Shown here: positions 2,277-15,132 of the stretch, in pieces
Numbering within the stretch: position 1 is the stretch's first letter
Layout: every line of letters begins with the position of its first letter
Source: Rhizodiscina lignyota
Lineage: Eukaryota
Direction of reading: 5' to 3'
Assembly: GCA_010015805.1 (NCBI GenBank)
Contig: ML978123.1
Span: forward strand, 2,356,001-2,420,000
Length of the DNA stretch: 64,000 bases
Made by a program: the position numbers and the translations under genes
The notes under the pieces: generated by a model
Seen by the model: the letters and a program-made list of their open reading frames with translations, nothing else
What the model was told of the DNA's origin: nothing
The model's database searches: none

Positions 2277-5200
2277 ATGACCTCCACTCCAGATCCGAAA
2301 AGCGCGACCACCTTGTCCAGTCTCTCTGGCATAACTGGATTCTCCCCATGGAGCTCTCGAAGTGCCACGCCTAGACCAGGACAAGCTGCAGATAATGAGG
2401 CCGATATCACAGAAGCGGGCTTAGGCACACAGAGGGGAGGAGATCATGCCGTGTCTAATCGTCACAGGCTGAGTTTGAAAGACTACCCAAGGGACTGTCC
2501 GAGGTTGAATGTTCAGTGGTTTTATGCGGTCGATGTATGACTCTTATCTATTGATGCTGAGTTATTTAGTGCTGATAATGACATTGTGCACAGTCGCCGA
2601 AAAGAAAACCACACCTGTATCCCTCTGGTAGCGAACCTGCCAACGCCCCTCCTCCACCTCCGCCAAAGAAATACGTACCATTTTCAGGTCGAGACTCGCG
2701 AACCATCGAAGCGGCATTCCAGAAGCTGGCAGAGGAAGAAGAGGCGGCTGAACAGAAGCAGCTCGCTCAAGAGAATAGGACAATACACCCCAATACAAGT
2801 TTGAAGGGCAAGGTTAAAGTGCCCGTTAATGAAGATTATCTTTTCGATGTCGACGTAGAGAACCGTGAGCTCGGCCCTGCGTATTGGCTCGGTCCGGTCT
2901 ACGATGTTAGAAGGGGCACGTGGTTCTATTCAGGTATGCTTTTGGTTTCAAGTCTCGAGGGGGTCGACGCTGACCATCGATTAGGTTCCGCTGGCCCAAA
3001 CCCATGCGATGAAAATCTTGCAACTCAGCTAGAAGAGGGATATCTCAAAATTCGCCCATGGACGTTTCCGCTGGAAGAACAAGTCCGATCCCGGTCTGCA
3101 TCTCAGACCAGATCACGACCCACTTCCCTGAGGGTTGAAGGTGATCCTAAATCCGCACTTACATCTTCAGCAGGAGTCACGCCAAAGGCCTCTTCAGACA
3201 ATTTAAAAGCTTCAGATGCTCTGCCTCGGCAATCAGAAGACAACGTGAACTCTCAAGCTCAACAGAAGACGTTCAGGTTATTCGGAGCTCATATGGGTTC
3301 AATGGTCACATATCAAGATGCATCTACGGCGTGGCTACTAACGGACGATTTCCTCTCGAGAATGAACAGTGCCATGTACGAAAGATTCGCTGGAGGCGGC
3401 CATTTCGCTGGGGTAAAGATTACGAGAGGATACGTCGCTTCAAAAAAGGCTGTGGTTAAGGATGGGAAGTCTCCAGATGCCAATAAAGACAGTACTTCTG
3501 ACAACCAGGGCGGAGAGCGTTCACAGCAGGACACCAAACCTAAAGACGATTCTGATGCGATTGCTTCTGCTGCGGAGAAGAGGCGTTTACGGTTGGAGCG
3601 ACAGCTGTCTTCACTAATGGAGTCCGCCGTTCCCGAGGATCGCGAGAAACAGGAGGAGGAGGCACGCAAACGGAATGAGCAAGAGATGGAGGATGACTAT
3701 CGAGACGACGACGAGAATCAGCAGGTCAGAGAGATCGAGCACCTGATTCTTGTCACCCATGGGATTGGCCAGCGTCTTGGACTGCGAATCGAGAGCGTAA
3801 ATTTTGTTCACGACGTCAACACGATGAGGAGAACGTTCAAGGACACATACCAGGAGTCCCCGGATCTTCAGGCGCTCAATGGCGACATCGATAAGGATTT
3901 CAAGAATAGCCGCATTCAGGTCCTTCCTGTGTGCTGGCGCCATCTTCTTGATTTTCCAAAACAAAGCTTGAGGCACAACCGGGAGGAGCACGATTTAGGT
4001 GTGTTGATATGTTGCTTGAATCCACACTATACGCTAATGTATCCTCAGGTGATGCGGATTTCGGAGAGGAGGATGAGGATTATCCATCATTGGAAGATAT
4101 CAACGTGGAAGGTGTTCCAGCCGTTCGTAATCTGATTACCGACCTGGCTCTTGACATTCTCCTATATCAGTCGCCTGCGTACAAGAACCACATATCACGC
4201 ATTGTACTCGAAGAGTGCAACCGTGTCTACGCGCTCTTTAAGGAAAGGAATCCGTCTTTTAATGGTAAGGTCAGCTTCGTAGGACATTCGCTAGGTTCTG
4301 CGATCATGTTCGATATCCTCTGCAAACAGCCAACCGCAAGTTCGAGGCCGAGTGCCGCGAAATCTCGCCGCAGTCACAAGCTAGAACCCAGAAATCTCAA
4401 GCTTGACTTCCCAGTCGAAGACTTCTACGCCTTAGGCTCTCCAATCGGTCTCTTCCAAATGCTCAAAGGTCGCACAATTGCCGGCCGTAACTTTATGGAT
4501 GCGCCAATTACTGCCGAGACGCCTGACGATGAAGGAGACCTGGCTGGCGACCCCTTCCTTGCGCTTGGAAACCCTTCAAACAAGAACAAATCGACGTTAT
4601 TCGATATCACGACCTCGTCACCTGCTTGTACTCATATCTACAACATCTTCCATCCCACGGATCCCATCGCATATCGCCTAGAGCCACTCATCTCGCCAGC
4701 GATGGCCCAGTTGAAAGCGCAGCCGCTGCCCTATACCAAGAAGGGTCTCTTCGGTGCACCTGGACAGGGTATCCAAGGCATCGGTGTTCACATCGGCCAA
4801 AGCGTGAGCGGCTTATGGAGCAGCCTTTCTTCCGGCATTGCAAGCAGCCTGCTGAATAGAAGTCTCGGCCTCTCGAACGACCAAGCAGGCCAGCTTGGGA
4901 ATCCTGTGACGCAAGGCCAGACCACCAGTCCCGAGACGCAGGATCCTGGGCTTCTGAATGATGCGCGCAAGAGAATGCTGGCGCAAGATCATATTACCAC
5001 CGGAGAGGATGGGAAGCATCCGCCGACGTTGATCGACGCAGAGATAGAGACGTTGTATTCTGGATTTCAGCGACAGGTGACTGTCAGTGGGGAAGACGAG
5101 GACGGGGACGAGTTGGAGAAAGCAAAGACGACAGAAGAGCAGGCGAGGAGGCTGAAGAGGGAGGAGCAGAAAGTCAGGGCGTTGAACTCGAACGGAAGGG

Positions 5201-11400: not shown

Positions 11401-12017
11401 AAGCCGTCGAACTCCCACAGACGCATTGAAGAAGCACCGGCAAGCTCCTGCTTTTTGGCCAGCGACAGCGTGCGTACCTTACACCCGGAGCGCGTCGAAA
11501 TCGCCATCTGCCATCTCTCGGGGCGTCAGGAATCGCGAGCAGGCGCAGCGCTGAAGTCACTCGCTCAAGTCCCGGCTGTATGTGTCTTCTCTTTCCCCCA
11601 CCACCACTCGCTAGCAGCAGCCCCCTCCAAGCTCCGTTGCCCGTCCCGTGCTTCCACGCCTTCCACGCTGTCCCGCTATCTGTTGGCGTGGTTTGTTCGT
11701 GAAGCGCCAACCGGCAGCTGGCACTAAGCTTCTTTCCCAACCTCCTCCGCCTCTACACATCTTCGGCCCTCCACCTCCCATCTCTTTTTCTCCTCCACTG
11801 TTGTGCCTCGCGCCAACTTCTCCTTTGTGCAGCATAGCAGAACCACTTCTCCAGAGACGAATGTTTGTCCCCATTGGCGATTGCCGCCCCAATGTGCCTG
11901 CGTTTGCGCTGCGAAGATTTTGCTGACAAGCTGCCGTGCTGCAGGCGAGTGTCTTGGGACGCAGCGAAGCACCATCTCCTGCAGGACCCTGACGAGCGAC
12001 GCGCGACGACTTTCATG

Positions 12018-13125
12018 ACCAGAAACGAGCATATAGAGTATTAGCGGCTATCTATCACATATTTGCCGGCCTCAAAAGCGAGTGCGCCTCAGCAGCCTCA
12101 GTTCGCCGTCACCCAGCCTTATCCCAAGGAAGCGCGACCCGACTGTGCCTTCCTGAACACAAACGGGGACGACGACACCACTCCCCACGACATTTTCTTA
12201 CGACCCGACACGATTGACGCCCTAATTTCTTGCTCATCTTTCAGCATTGCAGCGTTCCTGTCTTCTGGCGAGATTCCGAATTGAGTGCCGCGCCGCATTC
12301 TTCTGCCATCAACCCACACCACACGAGAATTCCTCGGCTCCGTGCTACCTCGAGCTCTCCGTACCACGAGCTGCGCCGACATCACTGACACGCCTCACGA
12401 ATCACGCTTTCAAGCCTCGTCTTTGAACTCTAACATCCCAGCTCAAGGCAATCGAGCGTGTTTGCACTGACACTCAAACTCGACGTGCGGAACACCTAGC
12501 AAACAATTGCCAAGCCCATAGCTCGACAGCGCATCACCAACTCCGCGCTAAACCGACCCTATCTCGATTTCTTTTCACCGACATCGGCAAAATCCAGAAA
12601 ACTCGAGCTGGACTCCCGCCCTACTCCTGCCGAGCTCAATCGTCCTGAAATAGACTGTTTGACTCGAGACTTCGCTGCTCTCAAGCCGTGAAGCCTTGAA
12701 TCTCACTCTGCTGTCGCACTCGGACGTCTGGTCCGTGATCAAGCAATACCGTAAAGCTGGAGCTCCCGTCGATTTCTCAGGTCCACCAACGAGGCGCCGA
12801 CCAAGCGTACTACAATCATTACGCCCCTCGTCCAGCTGTATCGAGTGAGCGACTACCAGCTCTTCCTCAGATACAGACTCAAGCGGGGTCGTCATCGGCT
12901 TCGTCGTCGCCTCGGGGTGGATCATACAGCGGCTCCTCCGTTCTGAACGGAAGCGTATCTTCGAACACGTCCTACACCAACTCTGTTACTGGGCCACACG
13001 CAGCAGCCTTTAAAACACCCTCTCCCGAGCAAACACCGAGAGATAACGGCATTCCAGAGCAAGAATCGCCTTACGGTCAACAACAGATTTCAGGTTACGC
13101 ATACGGCCACGAGTCATACCCAAGC
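12018..13125 (+). promoter_or_regulatory. AUG-free 5' leader of stuA containing an in-frame open extension (12739-13125)
   Basis: No ATG on the + strand between the ATG at 12015 and the ATG at 13126. The stuA frame is open from the TGA at 12736-12738. Confidence 0.75.
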
Positions 13126-15132
13126 ATGAACACAATCCAACCCGCCTACGATGTGCATCAGTCGCACATGTCGCAGCACACCTCAGGCCCGCCATCGGGC
13201 CTAGGTCATTACTCGCACTATCCACAGCCACCTCTCTTGCAGCCCGGACCACAGACGTATTCTTCTGCCCCCAATTCTTACAGCCAATATCCATATGGCG
13301 GGGGCATGAATCAGTCTCCTGCGCATCCAGTGACTTCATCAATGGGCAGTGCAATGTTACAGCAAGCCCTTCCTCTCCCAGGTAAGTTCCGCACTTCAAT
13401 TCCCAAATTAAACATCATGTCACTAATTTCAAGGCACAGCTATGGCTTCACAAGCAGGCACTGGTTCTATGCAAGGTGCTCAAAGTTACCCTCCTCACCA
13501 GTTCGATACCACCGGCCAAATCGCACCTCCAGGTGTCAAACCAAGAGTGACAGCGACCTTGTGGGAAGATGAAGGCAGCCTGTGTTTTCAGGTAGAAGCA
13601 AAGGGTGTCTGCGTGGCGCGTCGTGAAGGTCAGTATATTTCCAATCAAACGATTTGAAGGTTAAAATGAGTACGGGGCTAATGAATGGTCAAGACAATCA
13701 CATGATCAACGGAACCAAACTTCTCAATGTGGCTGGAATGACTCGAGGACGTCGTGATGGCATTCTCAAGAGCGAGAAGGTGCGCCATGTTGTGAAAATT
13801 GGCCCGATGCACTTAAAGGGTGTCTGGTATGTCTAGTTGCAGACGAGGATGCAGAGACGACAACTAACTTTCAACAGGATTCCTTTTGACCGTGCTCTTG
13901 ATTTTGCGAATAAGGAAAAGATTACAGACGTCTTGTATCCTCTGTTCGTTCACGATATTGGCGCGCTTCTCTACCACCCCACGAATCAGTCAAGAGCCAA
14001 TGTTTCCACTGGCGCGATGGCAGCAGTAGACCGCAGTCGTACGCAGCAACGATATCTCCCAGCAACACAGAGCACTCAAGCGCCACCGTTACACCATCAC
14101 CATTCGATGAGCAATCCAATGAACCAGGCACCTCCCAATTCAATCGCCCCCCATCCAGCAGCTGGTCGACCTGGACTTGACAGGGCTCACACCTTCCCGA
14201 CTCCTCCTACGAGTGCGTCGAGTGTGATGGGTATGAGTAACCAATATGGCTCCTCGGAATGGAGCGCAAGCGGTGTTTCGGGTATGCAGAACACCCAGCA
14301 ATTGTCCATTGACACAGGGCTAAGCAATACTCGTTCAGTCCCTACTACTCCGGCAACTACACCTCCAGGTAACGCAATCGGAAGCATGCAGCAATACCCC
14401 ACGACTCAATCTTACGATACTTCACGCCAAGTATACACCGCTCCACCTACGCAGACTAGTCCATACGGAACGCAGGTTCGATATGGTCAAGTTCAGCCAG
14501 GTCAATATCCAAAGACTGAAATGGCACCCCCGGCGCGTGCAGGTGAGGGTGAACAAGGTGACATAAAGCCTCCTGATATGATGGGCCAGCCGGGCACGCA
14601 TGTTCCGCACGGTGAGGAGGAAGCAGAACATGAGCAAAGCGAATACACCCACACACAAGCGCCATACTCTTCAACTCGCGATCCGTATAATTATGCGCCA
14701 GGGCCTCCTCAAGGTGCCATTCATGGTGAACCCCAACACATGTCGCCAGAACTAGCGAGTTCTCCGCATCAGAATGGCTCTGGAAGGGCTACTCCCCGCA
14801 CTACTGCGACTTCCCAGACACAGTGGTCTGGCCAGTATGGCACGCCGCAACGCGCAGCTCCAGCGAGCAATCTCTACAACGTAATGGACAATCGAGGAGC
14901 TCCAGTGAATGGCGCTGATCCCGGCTATCCTACTGCTGGATATCCGAGTCAAGCATATGCCGCTGCAAACGGTGGATCATCTGTCAAACGTGGCCGTGAA
15001 GATGATGATCAGGATTACAGACCTGATTCCCGCGATACAGATGATATCAAGGGCTTGAAGCGTCGGAAAACCGACACTATGGGTGGTGCGGTCGGAGCCC
15101 CGGCTGCAGTTGGAGCACAGAGGAGGAGATAG
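13126..15132 (+). CDS. stuA: APSES transcription factor StuA, AUG-initiated form; introns 13382-13439, 13629-13693, 13827-13877
   Basis: Spliced APSES domain [111 protein letters not shown]-terminal KRGREDDD and LKRRKT. Confidence 0.97.

Follow-up and report, generated by a model that had tools for sequence, protein, structure and literature searches.

The stuA locus and its upstream open frame

The window, meaning the whole 64,000-nt stretch of Rhizodiscina lignyota DNA that was analysed (GenBank assembly GCA_010015805.1, contig ML978123.1, positions 2,356,001 to 2,420,000), contains the gene for StuA on its forward strand. In filamentous ascomycetes, StuA and its orthologues hold a central regulatory place in sporulation, sexual development, secondary metabolism and pathogenic development, and they have usually been studied as AUG-initiated proteins. 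The protein read from the annotated AUG is 100% identical to P0005, an NCBI model of 599 aa that bears the name 'apses-domain-containing protein, partial [Rhizodiscina lignyota]'. The APSES/KilA-N DNA-binding domain (PF04383) typical of the StuA/Asm1/Efg1/Phd1/Sok2 transcription factors is precomputed on P0005 as well as on all listed protein matches, while the ORF of L009, a contig from a relative, gave a direct Pfam match to the APSES domain (E = 1.1e-09). Exons 2-4 encode the APSES stretch of the window. The locus comprises the following features:

11861..11926, + strand: 21-codon upstream ORF MFVPIGDCRPNVPAFALRRFC, aligning weakly to the L009 uORF (local score 21)
12015..12044, + strand: 9-codon uORF opened by the last upstream ATG, read from the sequence
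12018..13125, + strand: 1.1-kb zone free of ATG in all frames, the flanking ATGs being at 12015 and then 13126
12736..12738, + strand: TGA stop closing the stuA frame, 6 codons 5' of the CTG, read from the sequence
12744..12756, + strand: conserved 13-nt element CAATACCGTAAAG (consensus CAAYACCGNAAAR in 45 representatives), abutting the CTG on its 5' side
12754..12816, + strand: best-conserved motif of the extension, with K6, L7, L9, P10, S11 and S13 invariant
12757..12759, + strand: candidate CUG start of a long StuA isoform, an invariant CTG in comparative sequence
12757..13125, + strand: putative N-terminal extension of 123 codons from CTG to ATG, conserved at the protein level
12847..12876, + strand: 10-residue motif, whose counterpart lies directly behind the starting AUG in many Sordariomycete models
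13009..13038, + strand: FKTPSPEQTP motif with two Ser/Thr-Pro sites; P94 invariant, T93 and P96 nearly invariant
13126..13128, + strand: first in-frame ATG, the annotated AUG and predicted short-isoform start, at which M130 and N131 are invariant
13126..15132, + strand: StuA coding region from the AUG, whose joined exon translations equal P0005
13382-13439, 13630-13693 and 13827-13877, + strand: StuA introns, with GT..AG sites read in the sequence
15130-15132, + strand: StuA stop TAG, read from the sequence

Direct reading of the sequence revealed that the first-exon frame of stuA is open over 129 codons (12739-13125) and contains no in-frame ATG, GTG or TTG. This open frame, the TGA that closes it, the lack of those three codons and the context of the CTG had been reported in a preliminary description of the stretch, all coordinates of which were reproduced. 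The CTG at 12757 lies in the context AAG CTG G, which places A at -3 and G at +4. Near-cognate codons in this frame are AAG 12754, CTG 12757, ATT 12772, ATA 12871, CTG 12943, ACG 12967, ATT 13051 and ATT 13087. Further upstream, the ORF at 11861..11926 may lie in the mature leader and is possibly related to a conserved uORF of the relatives. Consensus-like candidate sites for a leader intron are also present, namely a GTATGT donor at 11578, a CTGAC branch site at 11923 and a CAG ending at 11944. A search for sequencing runs of the window listed none of RNA. The single run found, X1, was considered as an RNA source and rejected, as its one near-identical contig spans the entire stretch with the introns present and no joints; given these introns, X1 was taken to be genomic DNA, and it may be where this DNA came from.

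Conservation of the extension and of its CTG codon

Comparison with related loci revealed that the open stuA frame upstream of the AUG exceeds chance. The same frame is open in 42/42 representative loci, with 0 stops between CTG and ATG in frame 0 and 53 and 135 in frames +1 and +2, respectively, and an in-frame Met codon within the extension occurs in 0 of these 42 representatives. After the CTG, conservation is ~1.0 at the first two codon positions and 0.4-0.8 at the third, and this 3-nt periodicity is confined to the sequence downstream of the CTG. The median dN/dS of the extension was 0.26 in 548 usable pairs, which is a rough value obtained from protein-guided codon alignments of divergent sequences with a median dS of 1.6, and pN was below pS in 861/861 pairs across the extension. 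The in-frame control upstream of the CTG was near neutral, with pN/pS values of 1.4, 0.87 and 0.58 in the informative close pairs. The preliminary description had proposed that dN/dS should fall below one downstream but not upstream of the CTG, and that the frame should be open in orthologues; the low dN/dS downstream, the near-neutral control upstream and the frame open in 42/42 loci agree with this. A lack of coding conservation, which it had named as speaking against an extension, was looked for as well, and the extension was found to be conserved as protein in related loci.

At the candidate start site, the Leu codon is CTG in 81/81 loci (80 related metagenome loci and the window), a count that comes from phylogenetically non-independent loci, many of them Pleosporales-like. 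It reads as 'always CTG where Leu is encoded', because presence of the peptide K-L-[EA]-L-P-S was a condition of the scan and orthologues with another residue at the start position would have escaped it. Among the representatives, CTG occupies this site in 45/45. The next conserved Leu is spread over four codons (CTG 18, CTC 19, CTA 7 and TTG 1), and CTG makes up 28% of the other Leu codons of the extension. The flanking A at -3 and G at +4 were each present in 45/45 representatives, so that the conserved CTG and context suggested earlier as a check were found throughout the orthologous loci; according to the available text of Ivanov et al. (2017, PMC5487733), these two are the most important context positions in Pezizomycotina. 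An in-frame stop lies upstream of the CTG in 77/81 loci, the remaining 4 running off their contigs, and an in-frame ATG before the CTG is absent in 81/81. In the relatives, the nearest in-frame upstream stop is 6-176 codons away (median 26), with medians of 26 and 5.5 in the other two frames, and between the upstream stop and Glu-Leu-Pro the CTG is the sole near-cognate codon present in all species.

Median pairwise nucleotide identity was 0.28 at -60..-15, 0.89 at -13..+6 and 0.76 at +7..+48; the rise across the first boundary indicates that conservation begins at the CTG site, and upstream of the 13-nt element identity drops to random level. The element itself, CAAYACCGNAAAR, shows nucleotide-level conservation that follows no codon periodicity. 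In the 45 representatives, base conservation is 1.00 for A at -9, C at -7, G at -6, A at -3 and A at -2, and 0.98 for A at -4, whereas -5 is variable (0.42). Thus the third-position bases C at -7 and A at -4 are fixed, while the second-position base at -5 varies and switches the encoded residue among V, E, G and A. RNAalifold on 24 sequences detected no conserved RNA structure near or downstream of the CUG (-2.6 kcal/mol, 5 pairs, 0 compensatory changes), and the fold of the window's own sequence (z-score -0.51) gave no sign of a stable stem-loop assisting the CUG.

The best-conserved motif, which would form the very N-terminus of the long form and ends in D..(W/Y)YN, further contains the nearly invariant residues V15, R18, D21 and W24; at position 24 the window has Y. 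Further conserved motifs of the extension are ERLPALP, SSSPRGGS and KTPSPE, set in a low-complexity region, and FKTPSPEQTP could, judging by its sequence, be a proline-directed phosphorylation site. A search for Pfam families in the extension returned 0. AlphaFold2 modelling of the extension together with the APSES domain (26-row alignment) gave a mean pLDDT of 36.8 and a pTM of 0.16, and since scores were low even for the APSES domain, no conclusion was drawn from the predicted fold. Neither analysis lent support to the idea of the preliminary description that LPSI and LPAL in the extension resemble motifs that recruit co-repressors. Long models that carry the extension are named for five classes, Dothideomycetes, Eurotiomycetes (with the motif in Aspergillus, Penicillium and Onygenales), Lecanoromycetes, Leotiomycetes and Sordariomycetes, and a segment that the preliminary description had named as occurring in long StuA annotations is indeed present in long models of many genera. 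Many Sordariomycete models place their AUG immediately before the counterpart of the 12847..12876 motif, and 18/38 Sordariomycete and related models start with M-x-x-(E/D)-R-(L/I/V)-P-S-L-P or close variants.

The downstream AUG, spliced transcripts and alternative readings

Counted per 100 nt, ATG occurs 0.20 times in the 400 nt preceding the CTG, 0.10 times from CTG to ATG and 2.99 times in the 240 nt that follow the ATG, which makes the extension ~30-fold poorer in ATG than the post-AUG sequence. Codon shuffles of the extension contained 66.9 +/- 7.0 ATGs (minimum 45 in 500), compared with the 16 observed. The annotated AUG has a purine at -3 in 41/42 loci (A in the window), and the Ser codon preceding it is AGY in 29/29, as opposed to 23% AGY among the other Ser codons of the extension. 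The ATG depletion and the purine at -3 of the AUG are consistent with leaky scanning that would give rise to two isoforms.

In thirteen cDNA-like contigs from relatives the APSES domain is contiguous, and the ORF, counted from the CTG, comprises 750-779 codons. They were taken to be mature mRNAs because they lack introns, a comparison with genomic DNA having been made for one species, in which L009, L010 and L012 align to the same-species genomic contigs L011 and L014 with GT-AG introns removed, two of these introns sitting in the leader. A leader of 700-1070 nt was found in 11/13 contigs, and in 11/13 an upstream in-frame stop is followed by no ATG before the CTG, the other 2 ending first. 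In the species compared with its genomic DNA, the CTG-bearing exon begins 222 nt upstream of the Lys codon that precedes the CTG and holds an in-frame stop at -132.

These transcripts bear on the possibility that both isoforms exist but that an alternative promoter, with its transcription start downstream of the CUG, supplies most of the short one. Such a promoter can operate alongside CUG initiation of the long form, and Aspergillus nidulans stuA has two transcripts with two transcription start sites, as given in the available text of PMC3563288. Two contigs, L022 and L048, have just 21 and 174 nt before the CTG, possibly as incomplete assemblies. However, none of the 13 contigs starts inside the extension, and the depletion of ATG for hundreds of nucleotides upstream of the CUG, together with the 700-1070 nt leaders, fits a long scanned leader. 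We therefore regard an alternative promoter as an unlikely main source of the short form.

That the CUG is the sole start, so that the annotated AUG encodes an internal Met of one long StuA and no short isoform is made, appears unlikely as well. In its favour, the invariant Met and Asn could be kept for protein function alone. Yet ribosomes that did not scan past the CUG would impose no selection against ATGs in the extension, and for this reason the shortfall of ATGs relative to the shuffles, the absence of any in-frame Met and the high ATG density after the AUG count against a CUG-only gene. The context of the AUG is also constrained at synonymous sites, as evident from the AGY Ser codons, and AUG is in general a stronger start than a near-cognate codon (Ivanov et al. 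2017, PMC5487733, available text).

Many public gene models suggest a different origin of the long protein, namely a normal AUG on an unannotated upstream exon that joins the frame just before or within the conserved block, and the window has AG at 12742-12743 and 12755-12756 and a CAG ending at 12780. The N-termini supplied by these models are, however, mutually unrelated. P0009 reads 'MPM' before LELPSIS, whereas the DNA of L026, which encodes a 96% identical protein, reads ...NTVK-CTG, which suggests that gene predictors have invented these exons. Moreover, the AG at -2/-1 is missing in 9/45 representatives, where Lys is encoded by AAA, the counterpart of the CAG is TCG in 19/45, and the CTG exon of the relatives, starting 222 nt upstream, already contains the in-frame stop described above. 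The preliminary description had itself pointed to an AUG exon spliced into this frame as the finding that would undo a CUG start; a search of the relatives' spliced contigs found none, and we consider such an exon very improbable. The N-termini 'MELPSIS' (P0012), 'MLELPSIS' (P0049) and 'MPMLELPSIS' (P0009) were also considered as natural CTG-to-ATG variants and rejected, as they are models without DNA and, for P0009, the DNA of L026 reads ...AAG CTG.

Finally, the notion that the conserved stretch is an untranslated RNA or DNA regulatory element of the leader is scarcely credible: the nucleotide-level conservation of the 13 nt before the CTG does imply some RNA-level constraint, but the codon periodicity, the uniform excess of pS over pN, the stop-free frame, the negligible consensus folding energy without compensatory pairs, the window's unremarkable z-score and the ordinary AUG-started coding of the homologous region in 18/38 Sordariomycete and related models all speak against it.

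A proposed CUG/AUG dual start and its parallels

We consider it probable that a long StuA is initiated at the CUG 123 codons upstream of the annotated AUG and that this AUG is also used, by way of leaky scanning. The stuA mRNA would have a long leader poor in AUG, and scanning ribosomes would first meet the CUG at 12757, whose context, CAAUACCGUAAAG CUG GAG, is strong and of unusual length. A fraction would initiate there, presumably with initiator Met-tRNA, and yield a StuA that is 123 residues longer at its N-terminus, while the remaining ribosomes would pass 369 nt that selection would have kept free of AUG and start at the AUG at 13126. The motifs of the extension would supply the long form with extra interaction or phosphorylation sites. 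Initiation at the CUG, the presence of both isoforms in cells and a role of this kind for the extension are inferences from the sequence comparisons. The core of the preliminary description, a CUG-initiated extension of 123 codons beside an AUG start, is strongly supported by the invariant CTG, the coding conservation that sets in at the CTG, the lack of an AUG exon in relatives and the depletion of ATG; as to the source of the short form, for which it had named leaky scanning, these comparisons accommodate leaky scanning and an alternative promoter alike.

If the long form exists, gene models for much of Pezizomycotina would be either too short or furnished with invented N-termini, expression constructs anchored at the AUG and tags at the N-terminus would miss or disrupt one isoform, and start-codon choice would become a testable control point of fungal development. 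With its single invariant codon, the 13-nt upstream element and no downstream hairpin, stuA offers an unusually clean case for CUG selection. More tentatively, the 13-nt element might be a dedicated near-cognate initiation enhancer. Start-codon stringency and the conserved leader uORF would then set the CUG:AUG ratio, and with it the balance of two StuA isoforms that differ in function and direct developmental switches throughout Pezizomycotina; we regard this as possible, if doubtful. In that case, three decades of AUG-based StuA genetics and tagging would have left out part of the protein, and a CUG/AUG mechanism would account in part for the 'translational control' described for A. nidulans stuA. 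None of the papers listed by the literature searches linked StuA to non-AUG initiation.

Animal regulators with a CUG/AUG dual start include c-Myc, FGF2 and C/EBP, for which the isoforms have been experimentally shown and functional differences are known. They resemble the proposed stuA arrangement in that an in-frame non-AUG start precedes the AUG on one mRNA, with long and short forms arising by leaky scanning, but they are unrelated proteins from an unrelated lineage. C/EBP is among the cases discussed in the available text of Ivanov et al. (2017, PMC5487733), which describes how near-cognate initiation extends CPC1 (cpc-1) at its N-terminus in Neurospora crassa and further Pezizomycotina and in whose available main text StuA, asm-1 and APSES receive no mention. 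As far as that text goes, cpc-1 and stuA are alike in several respects: both encode a fungal transcription factor behind a long leader with uORFs, both have an AUG-less in-frame extension under purifying selection and conserved near-cognate codons with A at -3 and G at +4, and in both cases automated annotations sometimes take in the extension with its start left unresolved. In contrast to cpc-1, which is described with several near-cognate codons and an extension overlapping an inhibitory uORF, stuA has one invariant CUG, the 13-nt upstream element and an extension cleared of AUG. The cpc-1 extension has the support of in vitro, reporter and ribosome-profiling experiments in that account, whereas the long form of StuA is predicted from sequence comparison.

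For A. nidulans stuA, Wu and Miller are said to have described in 1997 alpha and beta transcripts with long leaders and translational control, both mRNAs reportedly yielding the same protein from the AUG. The gene belongs to the same family, and its long leader, leader introns and uORFs have counterparts in the relatives of the window; Aspergillus models also share the extension motif, and a longer, CUG-started protein is absent from the description of A. nidulans stuA as far as this was checked. A further fungal parallel is 6-phosphogluconate dehydrogenase, for which the available text of PMC7214817 describes non-AUG initiation that gives rise to peroxisomal isoforms. As proposed for stuA, a cryptic coding extension lies there in the annotated 5' UTR and is reached by non-AUG initiation, but it represents a targeting signal on a metabolic enzyme, whereas that of stuA would be a motif-rich region of 110-140 residues on a transcription factor.

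The upstream open frame of stuA

The APSES (StuA-type) transcription factor gene stuA was located by sequence reading and protein match, and joining its exons from ATG 13126 reproduced at 100% identity P0005, a 599-aa NCBI model named 'apses-domain-containing protein, partial [Rhizodiscina lignyota]'. Upstream of this ATG, the stuA frame is open for 129 codons and free of in-frame ATG, GTG or TTG, while the 1.1 kb at 12016-13125 contain zero ATG starts in all frames. Re-reading of the coordinates in the window confirmed every detail of the preliminary description here, including the closing TGA and the context of the CTG at 12757.

Features of the stuA locus and its leader
11578 (donor) and 11944 (end of acceptor), + strand: candidate leader-intron sites, read from the sequence
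11861-11926, + strand: 21-codon uORF
12015-12044, + strand: last upstream ATG, opening a 9-codon uORF
about 12.7-15.1 kb, + strand: stuA
12736-12738, + strand: in-frame stop TGA closing the stuA frame
12757, + strand: candidate CUG start, CTG in the context AAG CTG G
13382-13439, 13630-13693 and 13827-13877, + strand: three stuA introns with GT..AG ends

On sequence grounds, the best reading agrees with the preliminary description: a long StuA would start at CUG 12757, and leaky scanning past this codon to AUG 13126 would yield a second, shorter isoform. The CUG lies in a conserved extended context. No hairpin was found downstream of the CUG.

Conservation of the CTG codon and onset of coding-type conservation

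A single scan of metagenome contigs with alignment and the peptide pattern KL[EA]LPS[IV]S[QS]V returned 80 loci, which by best blastp match to named proteins were Dothideomycete-like (many Pleosporales-like), Penicillium-like, Onygenales-like, Lecanoromycete-like, or distant from all named proteins. Including the window, the leucine codon at the start site was CTG in 81/81 cases, which, as the pattern itself demanded leucine, means always CTG among the six leucine codons rather than never another residue. The preceding lysine codon was AAG or AAA, an upstream in-frame stop was found in 77/81 (the other four run off contig ends), and none of the 81 carried an in-frame ATG between stop and CTG. 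Among 45 representatives (<95% identity over -60..+150, loci without that flank being dropped), the conserved CTG and context anticipated in the preliminary description were found throughout, with CTG, A at -3 and G at +4 each present in 45/45. The next conserved leucine was encoded by CTG in 18, CTC in 19, CTA in 7 and TTG in 1 of these sequences, and the CTG share of leucine codons elsewhere in the extension was 28%.

In the same representatives, codon positions 1 and 2 downstream of the CTG were conserved near 1.0 and position 3 only at 0.4-0.8, which in the alignment columns is a coding signature. The stretch from -13 to -1 was also conserved, but in a non-coding manner: C at -7 and A at -4, would-be third positions, are fixed, while -5, a would-be second position, varies freely, the residue switching among V, E, G and A. 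Median pairwise nucleotide identity was 0.28 for -60..-15, 0.89 for -13..+6 and 0.76 for +7..+48. The expected retention of the open frame was borne out in 42 representatives (three with contigs ending before the ATG being omitted), which contain 0 in-frame stops between CTG and ATG, the two alternative frames having 53 and 135. Selection likewise followed the predicted course, with pN<pS in 861/861 pairs and a median dN/dS of 0.26 for the extension (548 usable pairs; a rough value, given divergent sequences and a codon alignment that follows the protein alignment). In three informative close pairs, equally rough pN/pS ratios were 1.4, 0.87 and 0.58 for the in-frame stretch upstream of the CTG, which thus appears about neutral, versus 0.30, 0 and 0 for the first 41 extension codons.

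The annotated AUG, leader splicing and leader uORFs

The first in-frame ATG lies 111-139 codons downstream of the CTG in 57/61 distinct sequences, the other four contigs ending earlier, and opens a conserved M-N-(Q)..Y.DV block in all but loci L047 and L066, where it is an earlier methionine, eight residues ahead of the conserved MNQ. ATG density per 100 nt was 0.20 over the 400 nt ahead of the CTG, 0.10 from there to the ATG and 2.99 over the 240 nt that follow it. Within the interval bounded by the two starts, 16 ATGs were observed, compared with 66.9 +/- 7.0 upon codon shuffling (minimum 45 in 500 shuffles) and 153 predicted from base composition. A purine occupies -3 of the AUG in 41/42, and the serine codon ahead of it is AGY in 29/29, versus 23% of serine codons elsewhere in the extension. 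Under leaky scanning, selection of exactly this kind is expected, keeping AUGs out of the stretch between two in-frame starts and preserving a good context at the second. A second promoter within or immediately ahead of the extension, as an alternative source of the short form, would predict much of the same AUG clearance and context pattern.

The other alternative, an AUG-bearing upstream exon spliced into the stuA frame, for example at the CAG ending 12780, does not hold in relatives. In thirteen cDNA-like loci, the ORF runs from the CTG for 750-779 codons without interruption, the APSES domain is contiguous, and 3' sequence is present as well. Three of them (L009, L010, L012) match genomic contigs L011 and L014 of the same species at 99-100% identity, except for missing blocks with GT..AG ends and branch-like sites. 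These define two GT-AG leader introns in this Pleosporales-like relative.

Leader introns of the Pleosporales-like relative
L011 1903-2211 (same in L014): first leader intron
L011 2579-2787 (same in L014): second leader intron

The CTG-bearing exon of this species starts 222 nt upstream of the lysine codon and already contains an in-frame stop at -132. An upstream in-frame stop with no later ATG was present in 11/13 cDNA-like contigs, the other two ending first. In 9/45 representatives lysine is AAA, so that the AG at -2/-1, a possible acceptor, is missing, and the counterpart of the CAG is TCG in 19/45. The one sequencing run found for the window consists of genomic DNA.

After the APSES domain, an in-frame segment of 19-21 codons (L011 about 4253-4315) differs between L009 and L010/L012, whose ORFs comprise 774, 755 and 753 codons, respectively; this could reflect alternative splicing, length polymorphism or an assembly difference.

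The cDNA-like leaders span 700-1070 nt; those of Dothideomycete-like loci have 0-1 upstream ATG. In the leaders of several Pleosporales-like loci, some of them spliced cDNA-like contigs, a uORF of 19-27 codons recurs 430-735 nt upstream of the CTG (L002, L006, L007, L009, L020, L023, L029, L030, L031, L034), with the conserved peptide M-F/L ... Y-S-S-R/W-P-A-F-V-N, often ending C-V-F. By sequence comparison, the window uORF at 11861-11926 weakly resembles it (score 21). The conserved uORF may account for the translational control that has been reported for stuA.

The extension in protein databases

With the 129 residues as query, phmmer found 24 matches at E <= 0.001 among 1.84 billion representatives, 12 of them at E <= 1e-10. 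A word-indexed search with exon 1 returned 22 longer proteins, every one with an APSES Pfam domain, and most span 97-100% of the query and therefore include the extension. In the protein alignment, conservation sets in abruptly at ..[13 protein letters not shown], and K6, L7, L9, P10, S11, S13, M130 and N131 (numbered from the start of the open frame) are invariant in 16 aligned sequences. Further searches found the block in models named Penicillium, Aspergillus and Onygenales, and in others named Colletotrichum, Stachybotrys, Monilinia and Lachnellula, among others; the motif pattern matched 57/69 proteins >400 aa in an interim collection. No known Pfam domain was found in the extension, where what is conserved are short motifs, two Ser/Thr-Pro sites among them, and a fold model including it was of too low quality for use. 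The evidence speaks neither for nor against the co-repressor recruitment suggested in the preliminary description.

In 18/38 Sordariomycete and related models examined, the initial methionine stands two or three residues ahead of (E/D)R(L/I/V)PSLP, the counterpart of ERLPALP at window 12847-12876. These models (P0108-P0113, P0115, P0116, P0118-P0127) place the start AUG inside the extension-homologous region (M-S-S-E-R-L-P-S-L-P), and the frame of other Colletotrichum models extends upstream as far as KLDLPSISQV, so that Sordariomycete lineages may possess three in-frame starts. Judged by these models, most of the window 'leader' corresponds to sequence that is accepted as coding, with an AUG inside, in another class, which provides independent support for translation of the region.

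Residues preceding the conserved block in public models bear no relation to one another. P0002, P0004, P0007, P0009, P0013 and many others start at arbitrary, mutually unrelated upstream ATGs, and some long models start 150-640 residues ahead of the block. P0009 reads MPM ahead of LELPSIS, while the DNA of the 96% identical locus L026 encodes NTVK-CTG. The N-termini of public long StuA models look like artefacts that would have arisen because gene predictors need an AUG. Prokaryote-style ORF calls on fungal contigs (P0015, P0020, P0031-P0033) start V/M-S-S-E-R-L-P, apparently at GTG; the window codon at this position is GTA, and GTG is therefore not a general alternative start there.

The closest described case is CPC1 of Pezizomycotina (PMC5487733), also a near-cognate-initiated extension. 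Both share the A at -3/G at +4 context rule, purifying selection and unresolved annotations; the StuA extension differs in being cleared of AUGs and in having one invariant CUG, preceded by a conserved element of 13 nt. A literature search for 'StuA' together with 'non-AUG' found no paper, and the main text of the cpc-1 article does not mention StuA, asm-1 or APSES. With good comparative support, the StuA extension would join this known kind of near-cognate-initiated extension.

A near-perfect copy of its first motif ([32 protein letters not shown]) occurs mid-protein, in unrelated surroundings, in P0044 (405 aa, predicted), which ends C-terminally in a GATA-type zinc-finger-like C-x2-C-x17-C-x2-C stretch and could be either a chimeric prediction or another protein with the same motif.
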